From positions 1 through 33,364 of the forward strand of contig DATLLV010000102.1 of the NCBI GenBank assembly GCA_035537655.1: a stretch of DNA of 33,364 bases, read 5' to 3'. The notes below the pieces were generated by a model. That model ran no database searches, had not been told where the DNA came from, and saw only the letters and a list, made by a program, of their open reading frames with translations. Source of the DNA: Miltoncostaeaceae bacterium. GTDB taxonomy: Bacteria; Actinomycetota; Thermoleophilia; Miltoncostaeales; Miltoncostaeaceae. The first letter of the stretch is position 1. Each line of letters starts with the position of its first letter. Shown here piece by piece: positions 14,574-27,526 of this stretch. Position numbers and translations under genes: made by a program.

Positions 14574-15776
14574 ATGCCCGTGCGACCGCTCTCCGCCGAT
14601 GCCCGCCCGCCGGACGGCGGGCTCGCCGCCGCGCCCGGCCTCCCGGAGGTGGCGCGGGAGTGGGGCCGGATCGGCGTGGTCGGCTTCGGCGGCCCGCCGG
14701 CGCACATCGCGCTGCTGCGGACGCTCTGCGTCGACCGGCGCCGCTGGATCGACGCGCGCCACTTCGAGGACGCGATCGCGGCCACCAACCTGCTGCCGGG
14801 GCCCGCCTCGACCCAGCTCGCGATCTACTGCGCCTGGCGCCTGCGCGGGACCGCCGGGGCGCTGGTGGGCGGGCTCTGCTTCATCCTGCCCGGCCTCGTG
14901 ATGATCATCGCGCTGGCGGCCCTGTTCCTGTCCGGGTCGCCGCCCGACTGGGTGCGCGGGGCGGGCGCGGGCGCCGGCGCCGCGGTGGCCGCCGTGGCGG
15001 TCGAGGCGGGCATGCGGCTGGCGCTGCCGGCGTGGCGGCGCGCCCGCGGCGCGCACCGCCGGCGCGCGCTCGCATACGCCGTCGCCGGCGGCGCGGCGGC
15101 GGCCACGCTCGGGCCGTGGCTCGTGCTGGTGCTGCTCGCGTGCGGCCTGGTCGAGATGGCGTGGCGCCGCGGGGCGTTCCGGGCGTCGGCCGCGGCGCTG
15201 TCGCCGGCCGCGCTGCTGCTCGCCGCGGGCGCCGGGACGGGCGGCCTGGGGGCGCTGGCGTGGACGGCGTTCAAGGTGGGCGCCCTCTCGTACGGCGGCG
15301 GCTTCGTGATCATCCCGCTGATGCAGGCCGACGCGGTGGACCGCTTCGGCTGGATGACCGACGGCCAGTTCCTGAACGCGGTCGCGCTGGGCCAGGTGAC
15401 GCCGGGGCCGGTGACGCACACGGTCGCGGTCGTGGGCTACGCGGCGGCGGGCGTGGGCGGGGCGCTGTTCGCCGCGCTGATCGCGTTCGCGCCCTCGTTC
15501 TCGTTCGTCCTGCTGGGCGCGGACCGCTTCGACCGGCTGCTGGCGAACACCGACGTGCGCGCGTTCCTCGACGGCGCCGGGCCGGCGGCGATCGGGGCGA
15601 TCCTGGGCTCCGCCATCCCGCTGGCGCTGGCGATCGGGGAGGCGTGGCAGGTCGCCGTGCTCGCGGGGGCGGCGCTGGCGCTGTTCGTCGCCCGGCGGGG
15701 CGTGGTGTCGACGCTCCTGGCGGCCGGCGCCGTCGGGGCGGTGCTCGCCCTGGCCGGAGCACCGCTGCCCGGCTAG
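14574..15776 (+). CDS. chrA: chromate transporter ChrA (two fused CHR domains)
   Basis: 400 aa. It has GVVGFGGPPAHIALLR...NLLPGPASTQLAIY in the first half and a second ..YGGGFVIIPLM...GQVTPGPV.. repeat. Confidence 0.9.
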   Translation: MPVRPLSADARPPDGGLAAAPGLPEVAREWGRIGVVGFGGPPAHIALLRTLCVDRRRWIDARHFEDAIAATNLLPGPASTQLAIYCAWRLRGTAGALVGGLCFILPGLVMIIALAALFLSGSPPDWVRGAGAGAGAAVAAVAVEAGMRLALPAWRRARGAHRRRALAYAVAGGAAAATLGPWLVLVLLACGLVEMAWRRGAFRASAAALSPAALLLAAGAGTGGLGALAWTAFKVGALSYGGGFVIIPLMQADAVDRFGWMTDGQFLNAVALGQVTPGPVTHTVAVVGYAAAGVGGALFAALIAFAPSFSFVLLGADRFDRLLANTDVRAFLDGAGPAAIGAILGSAIPLALAIGEAWQVAVLAGAALALFVARRGVVSTLLAAGAVGAVLALAGAPLPG

Positions 15777-15785
15777 AAGGAGGAC

Positions 15786-17033
15786 ATGGCCGCCACGCAG
15801 TACGAGGAGCTCCGCCACTTCCGCACCCGGGTGCCGGGCGAGGAGCAGCGGGTCACGAACCTCGAGCTGTTCTTCGACCTGGTCTTCGTCTTCGCGGTCA
15901 CCCAGCTCTCCCACTCGCTGGCCGTCCACCTCACCTGGACCGGCGCGCTGCGGACGCTCTTCCTGCTGCTGGTCGTGTGGTGGGTCTGGAGCTACACGAC
16001 CTGGATGACGAACTGGCTGGACCCGGAGCGGACGCCCGTGCGGCTGCTGATCCTGGGGATGATGGTCGGCAGCCTGCTGATGGCCATCGCCATCCCGGAC
16101 GCCTTCGGCGACCGGGCCGTCCTCTTCGCCGCCGGCTACGTCGCGGTGCAGGTCATGCGCAACGCGTTCATGGTCTACGCGACGCCGCCCGGGTCGGTCA
16201 TCCGGCTGGCGTTCGTCCGCATCGCCGCCTGGTCGGTGGCCACCGGCCTGCTCTTCATCGTCGGCGCGTTCCTGCCGACGGCCGGGCAGGTGACCCTCTG
16301 GGCGATCGCGCTGGCGCTCGACTACGCCGGCCCCTACGCCCGCTACTGGGTGCCGGTGCTGGGCGCGTCGGACACGGCCGACTGGGACATCGAGGCCGGG
16401 CTCTTCGCCGAGCGCTTCCAGCTCTTCATCATCATCGCGCTCGGCGAGACGATCGTCGTCACCGGGCTGACGGCCAGCGACCTCGACCTCGACGCCGCCC
16501 GGCTGCTGGCGATCGTCGTGGCGGTGATCGGGACGGCGGCGTTCTGGTGGCTCTACTTCGACTACGTGGCCCGGATCGCGGGCCGGCGCCTGCAGGCGGC
16601 CGACGACGCCGGACGGCTCGCGCGGGACGCGTTCAGCTACATCCACATTCCGATGGTGGCGGGGATCATCGTCGCCGCGGTGGGCGACGAGCTCGTGATC
16701 GCCCACCCCGGCGAGGAGCTGAGCGCCGCCGGGCTGGCGTGCGTCGCGGGCGGCCCGGCGATCTACCTGCTGGGGCACGTCGCGCTGCGGCTGCGCATGG
16801 CGGGGTCGATCAGCCGCAAGCGCCTGGCCGCGGCGGGCGCCTGCGTCGTCGTCGGCATCGCGGCCGCGCCGCTGCCCGGGCTGGCGGTGAGCGCGATGGT
16901 CGCCGGGGTGTTGGTGGCGCTGATCGCGGCCGAGGCCCACTCGGGGCGCCGGTCGCGCATGCGCGGCGAGGCGAGCCCGCTGGAGGCCTTCGAGGCGTCG
17001 CTCGCGCGCGAGGCCGGCGCGCCGCCCCGCTAG
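15786..17033 (+). CDS. ltrA: low-temperature-requirement protein A (LtrA) family membrane protein
   Basis: 415 aa. AAGGAGGA lies upstream. The N-terminus ..RVTNLELFFDLVFVFAVTQLS.. and the many TM segments are typical of LtrA. Confidence 0.85.
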   Translation: MAATQYEELRHFRTRVPGEEQRVTNLELFFDLVFVFAVTQLSHSLAVHLTWTGALRTLFLLLVVWWVWSYTTWMTNWLDPERTPVRLLILGMMVGSLLMAIAIPDAFGDRAVLFAAGYVAVQVMRNAFMVYATPPGSVIRLAFVRIAAWSVATGLLFIVGAFLPTAGQVTLWAIALALDYAGPYARYWVPVLGASDTADWDIEAGLFAERFQLFIIIALGETIVVTGLTASDLDLDAARLLAIVVAVIGTAAFWWLYFDYVARIAGRRLQAADDAGRLARDAFSYIHIPMVAGIIVAAVGDELVIAHPGEELSAAGLACVAGGPAIYLLGHVALRLRMAGSISRKRLAAAGACVVVGIAAAPLPGLAVSAMVAGVLVALIAAEAHSGRRSRMRGEASPLEAFEASLAREAGAPPR

Positions 17034-17036
17034 ACT
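17031..17036 (+). promoter_or_regulatory. candidate -10 box (TAGACT), 8 nt upstream of the aroC GTG; overlaps the ltrA stop codon
   Basis: ctagactcgcgc (17030-17041) is identical to the 12-mer at 28562-28573 in front of dxs. No convincing -35 is seen. Confidence 0.3.
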
Positions 17037-17044
17037 CGCGCTCC

Positions 17045-18205
17045 GTGGCCCTGACGTACCGCACAGCCGGGGAGTCCCACGGCCCGGCGCTCTTCGCGGT
17101 GCTCGAGGGGCTTCCGGCCGGGCTCCCGCTCACGCCCGACGACATCGACGCCGACCTCGCGCGCCGCCAGCTCGGCTACGGCCGCGGCGGGCGCATGAAG
17201 ATCGAGCGCGACCGCGTGCAGGTGAAGACGGGGCTGCGCCACGGCCTGACGATCGGCAGCCCGCTGACGCTCGAGATCCCCAACCTCGACTTCCCCAACT
17301 GGGCGGCCGACCGCATGGCGGTGTGGCAGCCGGAGGGCGAGGTGGAGCCCATCACGCTGCCGCGGCCCGGGCACGCGGACCTGGCCGGGATGCTCAAGTA
17401 CGGCACCGAGGACCTGCGCCCGATCCTCGAGCGGGCCAGCGCGCGCGAGACGGCGGCGCGGGTGGCGGCGGGCGGCGTCGCGAAGGCGCTACTGCGCCGC
17501 TACGGCACCGAGATCCGCAGCCACGTGGTGCGCATCGGCCCCGAGGCCGTGCCCGTGCGCGACGACCTCTCGATCGAGGACTTCGAGGGCGTCGACGAGA
17601 GCCCGGTGCGCTGCCTCGACGCCGAGGCGTCGGAGCGGATGAAGGCGGCGATCAAGGCGGCCGGCCAGGACCACAACACGCTCGGGGGGGTCTTCGAGGT
17701 CTGGGCCTTCGACCCCCTGCCGGGGCTGGGCTCCCACGTCTCCGGCGACGCGCGCCTCGACGGGCGCCTGGGCCAGGCCCTGATGGGCATCCAGGCCATC
17801 AAGGGGGTCGAGCTCGGCGCCGGCTTCGCCCTCGGGGCGATCCCCGGCAGCGAGGCGCACGACGAGATCTTCCACGAGCCCGAGCGCGGCTTCTACCGCC
17901 GCACGAACCGCTCGGGGGGCATCGAGGGCGGGATGACGCACGGCGCGCCGGTGGTCGTCCGCGCGGTGATGAAGCCGATCAGCACCCTCACGCGGCCGCT
18001 GGCGTCGGTGGACGTGGCCACGAAGGAGCCGCGCAAGGCCTTCAAGGAGCGCTCCGACATCTGCGCCGTCCCCGCCGCCGCCGTGGTGGGGGAGGCCGCC
18101 GTGGCGTTCGTGCTCGCCCAGGCCCTGACGGAGAAGTTCGGCGGCGACTCGATCGACCACCTCGACGCGGCGGTGGAGCGCTACCGGGCGGAGGTGGGCC
18201 GGTGA
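17045..18205 (+). CDS. aroC: chorismate synthase
   Basis: GTG 17045. It has LTYRTAGESHGPAL, ..RRQLGYGRGGRMKIE.., ..RPGHADL.. and ..ERASARETAARVA... The listed ORF start (14660) is spurious read-through across chrA and ltrA. Confidence 0.95.
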   Translation: MALTYRTAGESHGPALFAVLEGLPAGLPLTPDDIDADLARRQLGYGRGGRMKIERDRVQVKTGLRHGLTIGSPLTLEIPNLDFPNWAADRMAVWQPEGEVEPITLPRPGHADLAGMLKYGTEDLRPILERASARETAARVAAGGVAKALLRRYGTEIRSHVVRIGPEAVPVRDDLSIEDFEGVDESPVRCLDAEASERMKAAIKAAGQDHNTLGGVFEVWAFDPLPGLGSHVSGDARLDGRLGQALMGIQAIKGVELGAGFALGAIPGSEAHDEIFHEPERGFYRRTNRSGGIEGGMTHGAPVVVRAVMKPISTLTRPLASVDVATKEPRKAFKERSDICAVPAAAVVGEAAVAFVLAQALTEKFGGDSIDHLDAAVERYRAEVGR

Positions 18206-19816: not shown

Positions 19817-20250
19817 TGCTGCGGGTCGCGCTGCTCCACGGGCCCAACCTGAACATGCTCGGCCGCCGGCCGGCCGAGCACTACGGCTCGATGACCCTGC
19901 ACGAGCTCGAGGACCTCGTGCGCGGCTGGGGCGCCGAGCGGGGCATGGAGGTCGCGTGCTTCCAGACGAACCACGAGGGCGCCTTCCTGGAGCACGTGCA
20001 CGGCCTGGCGGGCGCGGTGGACGGCGCCGTGGTCAACCCCGGCGCCTGGACCCACTACCAGTGGTCGATCCGCGACGCGCTCGAGCTGCTCGGGGCGCCA
20101 TTCGTGGAGGTGCATCTGTCCGACGTCGAGGCCCGCGAGCCGCACCGGCGCCAGTCGGTGGTCCGCGACATCGCGGCCGCCGCGGTCTGGGGCCGGGGCC
20201 CCGACGGCTACCGCGAGGCCCTCGACAGGCTGCGGGAGGTGATCGGGTGA
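19816..20250 (+). CDS. aroQ: type II 3-dehydroquinate dehydratase
   Basis: 144 aa. It has LLHGPNLNMLGRR.P..YG, ..FQTNHEG.. and ..NPGAWTHY..IRDA... The start overlaps the aroB stop (TGATG). Confidence 0.95.
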   Translation: MLRVALLHGPNLNMLGRRPAEHYGSMTLHELEDLVRGWGAERGMEVACFQTNHEGAFLEHVHGLAGAVDGAVVNPGAWTHYQWSIRDALELLGAPFVEVHLSDVEAREPHRRQSVVRDIAAAAVWGRGPDGYREALDRLREVIG

Positions 20251-21323
20251 AGGAGGAAGGCCGGCAGGACGCGGTGCTCGAGGCGCTCGCCGAGCGGGGC
20301 CTGGGGGCGCTCATCGTCACCGACCTCGCCAACGTCCGGTACCTCACCGGCTACGTCGGCTCGAACGGCGTCGCGGTGCTCGGCCCCCGCGGGCGCTCGC
20401 TGCTGACCGACTCGCGCTACGCGGTCGCCGCCCGCGCGGCGGCGCGGGGCGTCGACGTCGTCATCGGGCGCCGCGACCTGCTGGGCGACGCGGCCGCGCT
20501 GGTCCCGTCGGTCGCGGGCGAGGGCGCGGTGGGGGTGGAGGCCGAGAGCCTCACCGTGGCCCGCTACCGCCGCCTCGAGGCGATGCTCGACGCCCCGCCG
20601 GAGCCGACCACGGGCATCGTCGAGACGCTGCGCGAGGTCAAGGACCCCGACGAGATCGCAGCGATGCGGGAGGCGGCGGCCGTCGCCGACCGCGCGCTGG
20701 CGGCGGTGCTGGGGCGCGGGATCGTCGGGCGCACCGAGCGCGACGTCGCCCTCGCGATCTACGGCGCGCTGCTGGACGAGGGGGCCGAGCGGCCGAGCTT
20801 CGAGACCATCGTCGCCGCCGGCCCGAACGGGGCGCGGCCGCACGCCGTCCCCGGCCCGGAGCCGATCGCGCCGAACACGCTGGTCACCATCGACCTGGGC
20901 GCCGTGGTCGACGGGTACTGCTCGGACATGACGCGCACCGTGGCCACCGGCCCGCTGCCGCCGCGGCTGGCGGAGATCTACGCGGTCTGCCTGCGCGCGC
21001 AGCAGGCGGCCCTCGACGCCGCCCGGGCGGGCATGGGCGCCGCCGAGCTCGACGCGGTCGCGCGGGCCGTCATCGGCGACGCCGGTTACGCTGACGCCTT
21101 CGGCCACGGCCTGGGGCACGGCGTGGGCCTCGCGATCCACGAGGCGCCGGGCGTGCGCCCCGAGGGCACGGCCACGCTGCGCGCGGGCATGGCCGTGACG
21201 ATCGAGCCGGGCATCTACCTCGAGGGCGAGGGCGGGGTCCGGATCGAGGACCTGGTGATCCTGGGCGACGAGGGCTGCGACATCCTGTCGCACGCGCCCA
21301 AAGAGCTGACGATCGTGGACTGA
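20247..21323 (+). CDS. M24-family Xaa-Pro peptidase (aminopeptidase P / PepQ-like)
   Basis: GTG 20247 overlaps the aroQ TGA. It has a creatinase-like N-terminal domain, then ..DLGAVVDGYCSDMTRT.., ..HGLGHGVGLAIHE.. and ..GGVRIED.. (metal ligands). Confidence 0.9.
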   Translation: MKEEGRQDAVLEALAERGLGALIVTDLANVRYLTGYVGSNGVAVLGPRGRSLLTDSRYAVAARAAARGVDVVIGRRDLLGDAAALVPSVAGEGAVGVEAESLTVARYRRLEAMLDAPPEPTTGIVETLREVKDPDEIAAMREAAAVADRALAAVLGRGIVGRTERDVALAIYGALLDEGAERPSFETIVAAGPNGARPHAVPGPEPIAPNTLVTIDLGAVVDGYCSDMTRTVATGPLPPRLAEIYAVCLRAQQAALDAARAGMGAAELDAVARAVIGDAGYADAFGHGLGHGVGLAIHEAPGVRPEGTATLRAGMAVTIEPGIYLEGEGGVRIEDLVILGDEGCDILSHAPKELTIVD

Positions 21324-21338
21324 GGAGGGCGGGACCGC

Positions 21339-21893
21339 GTGATCTCGACGAACGACCTGAAGAACGGCTACGTGCTCGACATCGACGGCGAGCTCGTCAG
21401 CGTGGTCCAGTTCCAGCACGTGAAGCCGGGCAAGGGCGGCGCCTTCGTGCGCACCAAGCTCAAGAGCCTCTCGAGCGGCGCGGTGGTCGACCGCACCTTC
21501 CGCGCGGGGGAGAAGCTGGAGCGGGTGACCACCGAGACGCGCACGATGCAGTACCTCTACCGCGACGGCGACGAGCTCCACCTGATGGACAACGAGAGCT
21601 ACGAGCAGATGTCGGTGCCCGCCGCGAGCGTGGACAACGACGACCTGCTCGGCCCGAACACCGACGTGCAGGTGATGTTCGTGCGCGAGCGCCCGATCCG
21701 CATCGACCTGCCGACCTTCGTCGAGCTGCAGGTGGTGCGCACGGACCCGGGCGTGAAGGGCGACACCGTCTCGAACGTGACCAAGCCGGCCGAGCTCGAG
21801 ACGGGCGCCACCGTCGACGTGCCGCTGTTCGTCAACGAGGGCGACCGGCTGCGGATCGACACGCGCACCCGCGAGTACGCCGCCCGCGCCTGA
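21339..21893 (+). CDS. efp: elongation factor P
   Basis: 184 aa with a GTG start and GGAGGG upstream. It has ISTNDLKNG...HVKPGKGGAFVRTKLK... Confidence 0.95.
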   Translation: MISTNDLKNGYVLDIDGELVSVVQFQHVKPGKGGAFVRTKLKSLSSGAVVDRTFRAGEKLERVTTETRTMQYLYRDGDELHLMDNESYEQMSVPAASVDNDDLLGPNTDVQVMFVRERPIRIDLPTFVELQVVRTDPGVKGDTVSNVTKPAELETGATVDVPLFVNEGDRLRIDTRTREYAARA

Positions 21894-21896
21894 CCC

Positions 21897-23711
21897 GTGC
21901 GGGATAGCCTGCTCCGGACCACCGAAGGGATGCCCGTGACGCCTCCCCCCGACCACGTCGGCTACGTGGACGCGACCCTCCGCGACCTCGCCCCGTTCCC
22001 CTGGGGGACGGCGGTCGGCACCGACGACCTCGCCCTCGCCGCGGCCGCCCTCTCCGAGGTGGGCGCACAGGTGCTCGAGGTGCTCGACGCCCGCTGCGCG
22101 CGCGCGGCGCTCGAGGCGCGCTCGGAGAGCCCCTGGGACCGGCTGCGGGCGATCCTGCGCGAGGCCGGCGCCACGCCGGTGGGCGTGGTGGTGGGGGCGC
22201 GCAACCTCTGGGGCGACCGCCTGCTGGCGCCCGACGTCGTGCGGCGCTTCGTGCTCTGCGCCGCGGACAGCGGCGTGCGGCGCATCCGCGCCACCGACCC
22301 GATGAACGACCCCGAGGCGCACGCTCCCGTGGCCCGCGCCTGCGCGGAGGCCGGGGTCGAGTTCGTCCCGACGCTGATCGTGGGGCCGGCGCCCGACCCG
22401 GGCGACCCGCGGTGGGTCGCGGAGGCGGCCGAGCTCGCCGCCCAGCCCGGCGCGCGGAGGATCTGCGTGTCGGACGGCGCCGGCCACCTGTCGCCGGCCC
22501 TGCTGGCGGCGCTGGTGGAGCAGGTGCGCACGGCCACCGGCCTCGCCACCGAGGTGCAGGTGCAGGCGCCCGGAGGGCTCGCGCCCCTGTCGGCCACCGC
22601 CGCCGTCGGCGCCGGGGCCACGGCGGTGCAGGCCTCCGCCGGCCCGGTGGCGCTGGTCTCGGCGCGTCCCTCGGCCGAGACGCTGCGGGCCGCGCTGGTC
22701 GGCGGCGGCCGCACCTTCGACTGCGCGCCCTCGGCGCTCGACCGCGCCGCCCGCGTGGTCGGGCCGATGCTGCCCGCCGACCGCCTGCGCCAGGCCGCGG
22801 CCGCCGTCTTCGGCCCCGCGGTGGCCGTGCCGCCGGCCCTCGAGCCCGGCCTGATCTCGCGCTTGGGCCGGCTGGGCCTGTCGCGCAGCCTCGTCGCGGT
22901 GGCGGCCGAGTCGGCGGCCGTGGCCCGCGACGTGGGCGCGGCCACGCTCGCGTACCCGCTGGGCGCGGCGGTCCTGGCGCAGGCCGCCCGCCACGTCATC
23001 GACGGCCGCCGCTGGGCCGAGATGGAGCCCGAGCTGGCCCAGGTCGCGCTCGGCCGCGCCGGGCGCCTGCGCGGTCCGGTGGCGCCGGAGGCGCTCGAGG
23101 CGGCGGCCGCGGCGGACGCCGGCGAGCCCGAGGTGCGCGACCTGGCGGCGGTCGCCGAGGAGGCGCCCCAGGGGCTGTCCGAGGAGGACCTGGTGCTGTG
23201 GGCGATGTTCGCCGAGACCACCGAGCAGGTGGTGGCGCGGCGGCGCTCGCTGGGCGCCGAGGCCGCGAACCGGCCGGGCCAGCCGGCGATAGACCGCGAC
23301 CTGCTCGAGACACTGGTGGACGTCGTCGAGGCGTCCGACGAGGCCGAGGTGAGCGTCGAGGTCTCGGGGGCCCGCGTCACGGTGCGGCGGGCCGTCGCGC
23401 CCGAGCCGGGCGAGGCGGTCGGCGCGCCCTCGGGCCGCGGCGGCGCGCACGGCGACGGCGACGTCGAGGACGGCCTGGTGCGCGTCACCAGCCCGATGGT
23501 CGGCACCTTCTACCGGCGCCCGGCGCCGGACCAGCCGCCGTTCGTCGAGGAGGGCCAGCGCGTCGAGGCCGGCGACCCGCTCTGCCTGATCGAGGCGATG
23601 AAGCTCTTCAACGAGATCGTCGCCGAGGAGGGCGGGGTCGTGCGGACCATCTGCCTCGACGACGCGGACGCGGCCGAGTTCGGGCAGCTGCTGTTCCTGC
23701 TCGAGCCGTGA
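21897..23711 (+). CDS. accB: biotin carboxyl carrier protein (AccB module, residues ~465-604) fused to an N-terminal PycB/OadA/5S-type carboxyltransferase-like domain with substituted metal-site positions
   Basis: This is a single 604-codon frame. Residues ~21-445 align collinearly with PycB-type CT domains: VDATLRD; LEV...SPWDRLR; ARNLWG..APDVVRRFV...GVRRIRATDPMND; ICVSDGAGHLSP; EVQVQAPGGLAP; VPPALEPGLISRL; SEEDLVLWAMF. The C-terminus carries the AccB N-domain (LLETLVDVVEASDEAEVSVEVSGARVTVRR), a P/A/G linker, SPMVGTFYRRPAPDQPPFV and the EAMKL biotinylation motif (K569, nt 23601-23603). The start could instead be ATG 21930. Confidence 0.85.
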   Translation: MRDSLLRTTEGMPVTPPPDHVGYVDATLRDLAPFPWGTAVGTDDLALAAAALSEVGAQVLEVLDARCARAALEARSESPWDRLRAILREAGATPVGVVVGARNLWGDRLLAPDVVRRFVLCAADSGVRRIRATDPMNDPEAHAPVARACAEAGVEFVPTLIVGPAPDPGDPRWVAEAAELAAQPGARRICVSDGAGHLSPALLAALVEQVRTATGLATEVQVQAPGGLAPLSATAAVGAGATAVQASAGPVALVSARPSAETLRAALVGGGRTFDCAPSALDRAARVVGPMLPADRLRQAAAAVFGPAVAVPPALEPGLISRLGRLGLSRSLVAVAAESAAVARDVGAATLAYPLGAAVLAQAARHVIDGRRWAEMEPELAQVALGRAGRLRGPVAPEALEAAAAADAGEPEVRDLAAVAEEAPQGLSEEDLVLWAMFAETTEQVVARRRSLGAEAANRPGQPAIDRDLLETLVDVVEASDEAEVSVEVSGARVTVRRAVAPEPGEAVGAPSGRGGAHGDGDVEDGLVRVTSPMVGTFYRRPAPDQPPFVEEGQRVEAGDPLCLIEAMKLFNEIVAEEGGVVRTICLDDADAAEFGQLLFLLEP

Positions 23712-23718
23712 GGCGGCC

Positions 23719-25082
<1,364 letters not shown>

Positions 25083-25086
<4 letters not shown>

Positions 25087-25505
25087 GCCCCGAGCGCGAG
25101 GGCGGCCGGAGGGCGGCCAGGCGCCAGGCGGTGATCCTGCTCTACCAGCGCGACGTGACCGGGCTCTCCCTCGAGGAGCTCGAGGAGAACGCCGCCCGCG
25201 AGGGGGAGCCCCTCGACCCCTTCGCGCGGGCGCTGGTCGAGGGCGTCGCCGCGGACACGGGCAGCCTCGACGAGCTGATCACGCGGGCGGCCGAGGGCTG
25301 GACCGCGGAGCGGCTCGCGCCCCTCGAGCGCAACATCCTGCGGGTGGCCGTCCACGAGATGCTCGACTGGCCCGACATCCCCGCGGCCGTCTCGATCAAC
25401 GAGGCGGTCGACCTGGCCAAGCGCTACTGCCAGGCCGAGGCGCCGGGCCTCGTGAACGGGATCCTGGGCCGGATCGCCGCCGACGGCGCGGAGGTGCCGG
25501 GGTGA
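25083..25505 (+). CDS. nusB: transcription antitermination factor NusB
   Basis: ATG 25083 overlaps the accC TGA (ATGA). 140 aa. It has ..RRQAVILLYQ.., ..W..ERLAPLERNILRVAVHEM.. and ..INEAVDLAKRY....APGLVNGILG.. Confidence 0.9.
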
Positions 25506-25721: not shown

Positions 25722-26117
25722 GTGCAGGTGGTGGTCATCCCGCCGAGCGACCCCGCCGCCGCCGGGCACGCGGAGCTGCAGGGCGTCGGCAGCGGCGACG
25801 ACCGCCCGCCGATGGGCGAGCTCGCCGCGCGGCCCTGGCTCACGCAGGGCGAGGCCGTGCGCGGCGCCCAGCTCGAGACGCTCGGGCTGACCCTCTACGC
25901 CGGCCACCCGGAGCTCGCGCTGGTGAACCTGCCGACGGCGTTCATCGAGGCCGGCGTGCGTCTGCTGAAGGAGCTCGGGACCTACGTCCTAGCCGGCGGG
26001 GTGCTGGAGGACGGCGACATCATGCAGTTGCGCCACGACCTGCCCCAGATCGTCGGCGTGATCGCGCCGCCGGAATCCGACGCGTCCGGCGCCCTCCGGG
26101 TGGTGCTGCTGGCGTAG
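25722..26117 (+). CDS. hypothetical protein, DUF4262-like by eye
   Basis: 131 aa with a GTG start. LETLGLTLYAGHPELALVNLPTAFIEAGVRLLKELGTYVLAGGVLEDGD...IVGVIAPP resembles the YTvGL...hPEL.v.GLp...a..lLn.l...v core of that family. The last 136 nt overlap the convergent sigma ORF, and both frames share wobble positions. The plus-strand peptide is the more protein-like of the two. Confidence 0.45.
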   Translation: MQVVVIPPSDPAAAGHAELQGVGSGDDRPPMGELAARPWLTQGEAVRGAQLETLGLTLYAGHPELALVNLPTAFIEAGVRLLKELGTYVLAGGVLEDGDIMQLRHDLPQIVGVIAPPESDASGALRVVLLA

Positions 26118-26728
26118 CCGGCCGGGGGCGGCCGCCCGTCGGCGCTCGCCGGAGCCTCGAGGGCGGCGCGCACCCGCGCGAGCCCCAGGCGCAGCCGGCT
26201 CTTGACCGTGCCCAGGGGCAGGCCCGTCGCCTCGGCGATCTCCCGCTGGGAGACGCCGCCGCAGTGGACCAGGAGGAGCACGTCGCGCTGCTCGGCCGGG
26301 ACCTCGTCCAGCAGCCGGTGCAGCCGTGTCGCCTCGGCCCGGTCGGCGCCCGCGCGCGCGACGGGGTCCTCGGGGGGCCCGAGGGCCTCGACCGCGAGGG
26401 CCGCCGCCTCGGCCCGGCCCCGGCGGGCCTGGGCGCGATGCCTGTTGATCGCCTGGTTGCGGGCGATCCCGATCAGCCAGGCCCGCACGCCCCCGCGTCC
26501 GGGGTCGAAGCGCGAGGCGTGGCGCCAGAGCGCGAGGAAGGCCTCCTGGCAGACGTCCTCGGCCTCGCCGGACCGGCCCAGGTGGGCGACGACGAAGGAG
26601 TGCACCGCCCGGGCGTGGCGGTCGTACAGGACCTCGAAGGCCTCGGCGTCCCCGGCCGCCACGCGGGCCATCAGTGCGGCCTCGGCGTGCGGCTCGCGCC
26701 GGGGAGCGGCTGTGATGGTGGTGGTCAC
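25982..26728 (-). CDS. ECF-type RNA polymerase sigma-70 factor with no adjacent anti-sigma
   Basis: Region 2 reads GDAEAFEVLYDRHARAVHSFV...AEDVCQEAFLALWRHASRFDP..GGVRAWLIGIARNQAINRHR. Region 4 reads EQRDVLLLVHCGGVSQREIAEATGLPLGTVKSRLRLGLARVRAAL. The preferred start is GTG 26728 (GAGGGGG upstream); ATG 26671 is also possible. A 57-aa S/T/P-rich tail follows region 4 until the first stop at 25982. Confidence 0.85.
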   Translation of the reverse strand: MTTTITAAPRREPHAEAALMARVAAGDAEAFEVLYDRHARAVHSFVVAHLGRSGEAEDVCQEAFLALWRHASRFDPGRGGVRAWLIGIARNQAINRHRAQARRGRAEAAALAVEALGPPEDPVARAGADRAEATRLHRLLDEVPAEQRDVLLLVHCGGVSQREIAEATGLPLGTVKSRLRLGLARVRAALEAPASADGRPPPAGYASSTTRRAPDASDSGGAITPTIWGRSWRNCMMSPSSSTPPART

Positions 26729-26810
26729 GCCCCCTCTGATCCCGCCCGGGGGCGATCCGTGACATGGCCACCGGGTTGTAACGCGGGCGCGCCGACCCGG
26801 ATCCACCCCC

Positions 26811-26818
26811 TATATGGT
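26811..26818. promoter_or_regulatory. only A/T-rich patch (tatatggt / accatata) in the 180-bp divergent sigma-sigma intergenic region; candidate bidirectional -10 element
   Basis: It reads TATGGT on plus and CATATA/TATAGG on minus. I could identify no clear -35 or ECF-type GGAAC..GTC promoter. Confidence 0.2.
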
Positions 26819-26908
26819 CTACCCGGAAGTTGGAGGAGGACCGGCACGCAGCGGGTCGCCGACCGCCGTCCACCGCAGGGCTCAGCGCACCCGGATGAGG
26901 ACCGCCTC

Positions 26909-27526
26909 GTGGAGGCCCTCCGGGGCCGGGACGAGGCGGCGTTCGCCGACCTCATGCGTCGCTACACCGCGCCCATGACCAGTGTCGCGATGCTCTACGT
27001 GAGGAACCACGCGGTGGCCGAGGAGGTCGTCCAGGACGCCTGGCTGAGCGTGGTGCGCAGCGTGGACCGCTTCGAGGGCCGATCCAGCCTCCGGACCTGG
27101 ATCTTCACCATCCTGGCCAACTGCGCGCGCAAGCGGGCGGCGCGCGAGGGGCGCTGCGTCCCGTTCTCCTCCCTCCTGGGCGGGGAGCCCCTGGAGCCCT
27201 CGGCCGAGCCGGATCCGTTCACGCCCGCCGATCACCCGCGCTGGTCGCGCATCTGGACGACGCCGAACGACGCGTGGGACGCGCTCCCGGAGGACCGCGT
27301 GCTGGGGCGCGAGTGCGTGGACGTCGTGCGCGAGGCCATCGCCGGCCTGCCGCCGCTGCTGCGCGAGGTCATGACGCTGCGGGACGTGGCCGGCTGGAGC
27401 GCGCGCGAGGTGGCCGAGGCGCTGGGGATCAGCGACGAGAACCAGCGGGTGCGGCTGCACCGAGCCCGCGCGCGCGTGCGCAGCGAGCTCGAGGGCTACC
27501 TCGGGGCGCCGGGAGCGGGCGCGTGA
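26909..27526 (+). CDS. ECF-type RNA polymerase sigma-70 factor
   Basis: Region 2 reads RDEAAFADLMRRYTAPM...AEEVVQDAWLSVVRSVDRFEGRSSLRTWIFTILANCARKR. A long linker follows. Region 4 reads LLREVMTLRDVAGWSAREVAEALGISDENQRVRLHRARARVR. The start is set at GTG 26909 (GAGGA 7 nt upstream). An alternative is an in-frame ACG at 26846, 5 nt after a perfect GGAGGAGGA. Confidence 0.85.
   Translation: MEALRGRDEAAFADLMRRYTAPMTSVAMLYVRNHAVAEEVVQDAWLSVVRSVDRFEGRSSLRTWIFTILANCARKRAAREGRCVPFSSLLGGEPLEPSAEPDPFTPADHPRWSRIWTTPNDAWDALPEDRVLGRECVDVVREAIAGLPPLLREVMTLRDVAGWSAREVAEALGISDENQRVRLHRARARVRSELEGYLGAPGAGA

Follow-up and report, generated by a model that had tools for sequence, protein, structure and literature searches.

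A degenerate carboxyltransferase-like domain fused to the biotin carrier AccB at the accBC locus of a Miltoncostaeaceae bacterium

Choi et al. (2016, PMC5059739) describe bacterial two-subunit pyruvate carboxylases (PC) as having a beta subunit with a BT-like domain that carries a conserved HGE motif, and an alpha or biotin carboxylase (BC) subunit of approximately 471 residues whose C-terminus is an Ala-rich hydrophobic helix. The gene described here occupies positions 21897..23711 of a 33,364-nt stretch of contig DATLLV010000102.1 from a Miltoncostaeaceae bacterium; the whole of this stretch, approximately 77% G+C, was analyzed and is referred to as the window, and features are on its forward strand unless stated otherwise. 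Like accB of multi-subunit acetyl-CoA carboxylase (ACC), the gene lies directly upstream of accC in the slot between efp and nusB, and the C-terminal 140 residues of its product align end to end with the Escherichia coli biotin carboxyl carrier protein (BCCP) AccB (1bdo and 4hr7_B; TIGR00531). Unlike E. coli AccB, the protein has approximately 450 extra N-terminal residues with a PC-type carboxyltransferase (CT) fold. In the order of CT, BC-interacting segment and biotinyl domain, and in having a separate BC gene alongside, it resembles the two-subunit PC protein PycB of M. flagellatus (5ks8), which is its best match in both sequence and structure, but it differs from PycB in lacking the catalytic metal ligands and substrate residues and in having a biotinyl domain with an ACC-type thumb. 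It shares a TIM-barrel plus PYC_OADA fold with the oxaloacetate decarboxylase alpha subunit OadA (2nx9) and transcarboxylase 5S (1rqb), from which it is set apart by the missing metal and substrate site and by the fusion to AccB. The data presented below indicate that the gene almost certainly encodes a fusion of a pseudo-CT with AccB. Annotations of this family are inconsistent across sources, the labels being oxaloacetate decarboxylase alpha subunit (Joint Genome Institute, JGI), acetyl-CoA carboxylase BCCP, biotin/lipoyl-containing protein and hypothetical protein. The literature consulted, a limited corpus that includes Choi et al. (2016) and Lombard and Moreira (2011) and constitutes weak evidence, contained no account of an intact hybrid or of a dead PC-type CT domain, and the CT-AccB hybrid is apparently undescribed.

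Fold, former active site and carrier module

The N-terminal approximately 450 residues are predicted to adopt a CT fold of the PC/OadA/5S type, consisting of a TIM-barrel (HMGL-like) part (21954..22766, residues 20–290), which holds the degenerate metal site, followed by a PYC_OADA-like C-terminal part (22767..23261, residues 291–455). The NCBIfam model PRK09282 (PycB) spanned residues 21–603, corresponding to positions 4–590 of a 591-position model, with a score of 192 bits against a cutoff of 402, and the Pfam models HMGL-like (18.7 bits, threshold 29) and PYC_OADA (16.3 bits, threshold 27) both scored below threshold. A profile built from 17 family members matched 5ks8_C (2.6e-58), 2nx9 (9e-49) and 1rqb (1e-34). 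The AlphaFold2 model of the protein had a mean predicted local distance difference test score (pLDDT) of 83.5 and a predicted template modelling score (pTM) of 0.71, with low confidence in the linker only. When this model was searched with Foldseek the best match was the two-subunit PC beta subunit 5ks8 (E = 8e-36), and template modelling (TM) scores were 0.79 to 5S (1rqb; root-mean-square deviation (rmsd) 3.9 Å, 457 aligned columns) and 0.82 to OadA (2nx9; rmsd approximately 3.9 Å, approximately 460 aligned columns). An earlier sequence-only reading of this DNA had proposed a CT domain collinear with those of PycB, OadA and 5S in both of its parts, and the near full-length PRK09282 alignment, the profile matches and TM scores of approximately 0.8 bear this out.

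The metal and substrate site was mapped by single-sequence and profile alignments to 5ks8_C, 2nx9_A and 1rqb_A, with concordant results. The published metal ligands, D17, K178, H207 and H209 in OadA and D23, K184, H215 and H217 in 5S, were reproduced by residue counting in the 2nx9 and 1rqb alignments. The metal Asp is kept as D30 (21984–21986), the final residue of TLRD, and is invariant in the family. The carbamylated Lys is replaced by S192 (22470–22472; S in 15/17 family members, A in 1/17 and V in 1/17), the first His of the H-x-H motif by Q221 (22557–22559; Q, L, I or S in the family) and the second by Q223 (22563–22565; Q in 16/17 and V in 1/17). The combination of K, H and H as metal ligands was found in no member of the 17-sequence alignment. 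The GHQS motif has become L31-A32-P33-F34, the Arg of LLRGQN is a Gly in VVGARN, and the Thr of VTPTSQ is a Tyr in AYPLGA; in R. etli PC the Gln of GHQS and the Arg of LLRGQN bind pyruvate and the Thr of VTPTSQ is the proton shuttle. Missing from the CT-like domain in these alignments are the carbamyl-Lys, both metal His residues, GHQS, the Arg that binds pyruvate and the Thr that shuttles the proton; the domain cannot assemble the canonical site for metal and substrate, and it falls short of the defining features of an active PC/OadA/5S CT. The substitutions listed in the sequence-only reading (Lys to Ser, H-x-H to Q221 and Q223, GHQS to LAPF, with the Asp kept) are thereby upheld in profile alignments to all three structures, whereas two of its residue numbers required correction, the Asp being D30 rather than D25 and the Ser S192 rather than S191.

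The C-terminal carrier module is a complete AccB. It comprises an N-terminal domain of the BC-binding type (23286..23387, residues 464–497, IDRDLLETLVDVVEASDEAEVSVEVSGARVTVRR), a low-complexity P/A/G linker with pLDDT below 50 (23388..23477, residues 498–527) and an AccB-type biotinyl domain (23478..23708, residues 528–604) that includes the thumb RPAPDQPP (23517–23540, residues 541–548) and the biotinylation motif EAMKL with the biotinyl Lys K569 (23601–23603). Pfam Biotin_lipoyl matched with E = 3.4e-18 and the BCCP model TIGR00531 matched residues 521–603 only. Structures of E. coli BCCP were matched at 9e-19 with a gap-free thumb (FYRRPAPDQPPFVEEGQ in the window protein versus FYRTPSPDAKAFIEVGQ), RPAPDQPP pairing with TPSPDAKA, the thumb at E. 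coli residues 94–101. The canonical thumb-less PycB and OadA proteins require a 7-residue gap at this position, and where AccB has its N-domain they carry another segment, from which we conclude that the module is of the AccB and not the PycB type. The 17-member profile aligned with residues 22–176 of the full-length E. coli BCCP chain 4hr7_B at 6e-34, and in a BLASTP comparison with the last 140 residues, query positions 21–159 covered the whole of E. coli AccB (1–156). The earlier assignment of the C-terminal approximately 140 residues as a complete AccB with its biotinyl Lys at position 569 agrees with these results, including the BCCP model score of 98 bits.

The best full-length matches of the protein are PycB models and chains C and D of 5ks8, and JGI labels family members as oxaloacetate decarboxylase alpha subunit, observations that would suit an ordinary two-subunit PC, with PycB as beta subunit and PycA as its partner, lying near efp by chance. 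This explanation is very improbable and is contradicted by the residue mapping, as the K, H, H metal ligands and the GHQS, R and T residues are absent and the PRK09282 score is far under its cutoff. Furthermore, no HGE motif occurs anywhere in the window protein, where the AccB N-domain occupies the BT-like region, the biotinyl part has the ACC thumb together with that N-domain, and the adjoining BC subunit, at 455 residues, lacks the Ala-rich helix of two-subunit PCs.

Reading frame, conservation and selection

The fusion gene is a single uninterrupted open reading frame (ORF) of 604 codons flanked by efp upstream (21339..21893) and by accC (23719..25086) and nusB (25083..25505) downstream, as had been described from sequence. 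At the base composition of the window long ORFs by themselves carry little weight; the G+C content at third codon positions (GC3) is nevertheless at least 0.93 in one frame across the whole of 21897–23711, with a frame switch only at accC. Translation probably starts at ATG 21930 (593 aa) or GTG 21936 (591 aa), since gene callers use these starts on related contigs, giving homologues of 591–593 aa, and there is an AAGGG 6 nt upstream of the latter. An in-frame GTG-GTG pair at 23229 (V445-V446), which the sequence-only reading had put forward as an internal start for a free AccB, has no support, as both codons are unconserved, the family having L, I, M or R there.

Among 5.8 billion proteins searched there were more than 100 full-length homologues (577–605 aa) with 54–100% identity, and those carrying names were from Miltoncostaeaceae or other Thermoleophilia. 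The gene order aroC-aroK-aroB-aroQ-pepP-efp-X-accC-nusB, where X is the fusion gene, is identical in a relative with 59% identity and in Miltoncostaea marina, and synteny is common to all three close-relative loci examined (3/3). The fusion, adjoining accC in related genomes as in the window, is conserved across Miltoncostaeales. In the M. marina record (CP064655.1; locus L001:10001-11769), however, the gene is split into overlapping ORFs of 548 aa and 71 aa by a net -1 indel, seen as a 7-nt alignment gap, in the GC-rich P/A/G linker at the equivalent of approximately 23403 in the window; this could be either a sequencing error or a genuine split that frees the biotinyl domain. Versions of 380 aa and 500 aa also occur in some metagenome-assembled genomes (MAGs). 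Both observations could be read as signs that a frameshift or a missing stop codon, arising in sequencing or assembly, has joined a CT-like gene to a normal accB. Such an artefact is scarcely credible and was rejected given the more than 100 independent full-length versions, the continuous GC3 in a single frame and the presence of this fusion in no fewer than three phyla. Even the M. marina record preserves the junction of the CT-like domain with the AccB N-domain, its break lying within the AccB part and both halves being otherwise whole. The truncated versions come from assemblies with many broken neighboring genes, and the 380-aa and 500-aa proteins were not accepted as natural short forms because accC, aroC and aroB are fragmented in the same assemblies. 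On the megabase-scale MAG contigs of loci L082 and L084, accC, aroC, aroB and dxs are fragmented in a manner typical of uncorrected long-read indels, to which the truncated family members are attributed.

Ratios of nonsynonymous to synonymous substitution (dN/dS) were calculated by the Nei–Gojobori method between the window and M. marina, and family identity was taken as the mean pairwise value. The TIM-barrel and PYC_OADA parts of the CT-like domain gave dN/dS of 0.26 and 0.24 (identity 62% and 59%), close to the 0.22 obtained for both efp and accC. The AccB N-domain gave 0.03 (73% identity), the biotinyl domain 0.37 (67% identity) and pepP 0.47, and identity in the linker was 32%. These values indicate purifying selection on the dead CT domain, not decay.

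Other features of the window were also recorded. Upstream of efp lie aroK, aroB, aroQ and pepP, with an aroC candidate at approximately 17040-18205, in the 3' part of an ORF at 14660-18205 (+), placed there on synteny with loci L001 and L083 only. This ORF (1181 aa) and those at 20208-23795 (-) and 21962-23506 (-) (1195 and 514 aa) are very long, and all three are artefacts of the 77% G+C content, lying across real genes that are read in another frame or from the opposite strand. Between nusB and dxs, in the region 25982-27526, there are two divergent genes for extracytoplasmic function (ECF)-type sigma factors, the first at 25982-26806 (-) and the second with domains at approximately 26950-27480 (+); the corresponding place in M. 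marina is occupied by small ORFs only.

Intact and degenerate hybrids in other lineages

Full-length relatives with 27–39% identity and the same architecture of CT and thumb-type BCCP were identified when 1.84 billion cluster representatives were searched exhaustively, and a scan of GTDB species genomes gave at least 22 full-length loci among the matches listed; the scan covers distant hybrids, the close Miltoncostaeales genomes not being among the listed matches. The loci of the relatives were searched with the efp, accC and nusB proteins of the window and their motifs were tabulated. Hybrids from Clostridia, Eggerthellales and Bacteroidales, which carry the annotation OadA alpha or AccB, keep all of the canonical motifs (TLRDAHQSL, RGQNLVGY, IKDMAG, HxH and LVTPTSQIVGTQ) and are referred to as intact. 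In Clostridia, where they were found in Peptococcaceae, Desulfitobacterium, Desulfosporosinus fructosivorans (an isolate), Thermincola ferriacetica (a MAG), Syntrophomonas and related MAGs, accC comes directly after the intact hybrid, and nusB lies beyond it on every contig of sufficient length. The efp gene lies upstream of the intact hybrid in Syntrophomonas (L017) and in the Eggerthellales locus L002, the latter having the order efp-X-accC-nusB-dxs and a second Eggerthellales locus (L020) the order X-accC-nusB-dxs. At the two Bacteroidales-type loci, from MAGs (L021 and L023), the hybrid is intact, but accC, efp and nusB were not detected nearby. The D. fructosivorans locus reads spoIIIAA...AH-X-accC-asp23-asp23-nusB, placing the hybrid in the position of accB in Bacillus subtilis, and its hybrid scores above the Pfam thresholds for both PYC_OADA (193 bits) and HMGL-like (73 bits). 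The window protein has the same architecture, thumb and AccB N-domain as the intact hybrids and, as regards those of Clostridia and Eggerthellales, the same accC/nusB context, but it differs from them in the loss of the canonical motifs and in a PYC_OADA score of 16 bits as compared to the 193 of the D. fructosivorans hybrid.

Degenerate versions were found in several further groups of loci. In Gaiellales and other Thermoleophilia the degeneration has taken a different form (TIRLLSQEP, HD, YCQ), the gene lying in the cluster aroK-aroB-aroQ-pepP-efp-X-accC-nusB, and in this type the metal Asp itself is replaced (RLL), with Y or Q in place of H and H or L in place of K. A third type (LRSL, K-TA, DLDN) is located in a pilMNO-aroC-aroKB-aroQ-efp-X cluster. 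In a fourth (RDIFQN, KDxES, SAKN; L085:5403-9265) the order is bioY-fusion-accC, with fabZ, fabD and fabG nearby on the opposite strand; these flanking genes tie one degenerate fusion to fatty-acid synthesis. Neighbor-joining of the CT domains grouped the three degenerate actinobacterial types together on long branches, with the intact hybrids on short ones, which suggests that catalysis was lost in a Thermoleophilia-like ancestor and that faster evolution followed; long-branch attraction is possible and a single loss is not claimed. Given the intact CT-AccB proteins at the same accC-linked locus in Clostridia and Eggerthellales, the window protein is interpreted as the degenerate descendant of a widespread PycB-AccB (CT-AccB) hybrid and not as an oddity of its lineage. 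A different arrangement was seen in a Casimicrobiaceae MAG (L031:4092-7452), where a thumb-type accB with the variant motif EVMK and accC are followed by a separate, unfused CT-only gene that keeps LRDAHQ, the KD Lys and HSH and has VVSPFAQ instead of VTPTSQ; these genes may represent a different three-gene carboxylase.

The conserved sequence of the altered pocket raises the question of whether the CT-like domain might be catalytic with another chemistry or substrate, forming with AccC a new biotin-dependent carboxylase or decarboxylase that holds another metal with D30, D193, E219 and Q223 as O-ligands or works without any metal. R29, D30, D193, E219, Q223 (Q in 16/17) and APGG are invariant or nearly so in the family, selection on the domain is as strong as on accC, and the pocket signature is conserved within each degenerate lineage and particular to it. 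Such a neo-functionalised enzyme is nevertheless quite unlikely, since all of the known pyruvate-binding and proton-shuttle residues are gone and the long branches fit a relaxed catalytic constraint. A new chemistry common to the degenerate lineages is further argued against by the lack of a shared pocket signature, there being no set of pocket residues common to the Miltoncostaea and Gaiellales types, the latter having replaced even the metal Asp.

Partner genes, proposed role and implications

The adjacent AccC is closest to ACC biotin carboxylases, which gave 476–509 bits compared with 439 for Aquifex PycA and 365 for the alpha subunit of M. flagellatus PC, the best PDB matches being of the ACC type. 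Its 455 residues end in ...AERESFLPSLYEARAPA. In view of the carrier module and this partner, the fusion protein is likely to act as an ACC-type BCCP. Taken as a whole, we consider it somewhat probable that the protein corresponds to AccB in both position and structure, serving as BCCP of the adjacent AccC, and that its N-terminus is a catalytically dead CT. No second BCCP was found within the 33-kb window. The label of an essential or housekeeping protein, as used in the sequence-only reading, is drawn from gene position only.

Several observations weigh against this interpretation. The TIGR00531 score of 97.9 bits is below the equivalog cutoff of 115.2, the TIGR00514 score of AccC (592 bits) is likewise below its equivalog cutoff of 626.5, and no ACC-type carboxyltransferase (accA/accD or PF01039) was found within the 33-kb window. 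In addition, TLRDL, SDGAGH and EVQVQAPGG are among the best-conserved parts of the CT-like domain, and for such conserved pocket motifs a domain kept for binding is no worse an explanation than one kept purely as a scaffold.

The mechanism we propose begins with an ancestral CT-AccB hybrid in which one BC/BCCP pair would have supplied the PC-type CT joined to it in cis and presumably also, in trans, an acyl-CoA CT. The cis CT activity would then have been lost in Thermoleophilia, and the window protein would now function only as BCCP: biotin ligase would modify K569, AccC would bind the AccB N-domain and carboxylate the biotin, and the carboxyl group would be handed to a CoA-type carboxyltransferase encoded elsewhere. 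The CT domains of 5S and OadA are dimeric in solved structures, and a CT-CT dimer entry was present among the Foldseek matches. On the strength of dimerization in the PC/OadA/5S family, we suggest tentatively that the dead CT domain may have been kept as a scaffold, that is, as the oligomeric core of a BC/BCCP sub-complex inherited from the hybrid holoenzyme, and it might possibly also provide a docking site for the swinging biotinyl domain.

A regulatory or sensor role, as suggested in the sequence-only reading, would account for the same conservation in another way, with the dead pocket binding pyruvate, oxaloacetate or an acyl-CoA, or sequestering the biotinyl domain, and so tuning BC/BCCP activity. 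The conservation of the former active-site motifs and the purifying selection on the domain are in keeping with this, and there is a precedent in PCs, in which non-catalytic docking sites for the BCCP are known and regulation by acetyl-CoA runs through the BT/PT region (PMC5059739). The pyruvate-binding residues (the Gln of GHQS and the Arg of LLRGQN) and the metal have been lost, however, and the pocket residues vary among the degenerate lineages, making a sensor or regulatory module an unlikely explanation as compared with a BCCP carrying a dead CT domain.

If the proposed history is true, one AccC/BCCP pair encoded at the accBC locus serves two carboxyltransferases in Clostridia, Eggerthellales and perhaps Bacteroidales, a pyruvate-type CT in cis producing oxaloacetate and an acetyl-CoA CT in trans producing malonyl-CoA. 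The cis site would then have died in Thermoleophilia and at least one other lineage, and the domain would have found a new use as a conserved pseudoenzyme, forming the structural core of BC/BCCP or else gating fatty-acid synthesis as a module for metabolite sensing or BCCP parking. The two parts taken together, the shared-carrier design and the repurposing of a pseudoenzyme in Thermoleophilia, form a combination that we regard as doubtful. Inconsistent annotation of the family would mislead the metabolic reconstruction of Thermoleophilia, for example by the false assignment of an oxaloacetate decarboxylase or a pyruvate carboxylase. Biotin-dependent carboxylases are textbook modular enzymes, and here the carrier of the accBC locus permanently bears a dead transferase domain that has a living counterpart at the same locus in other phyla, offering a natural before-and-after series from catalytic domain to pseudoenzyme. 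The intact hybrids, for their part, raise the testable possibility that one BC/BCCP pair may feed both anaplerosis and fatty-acid synthesis.

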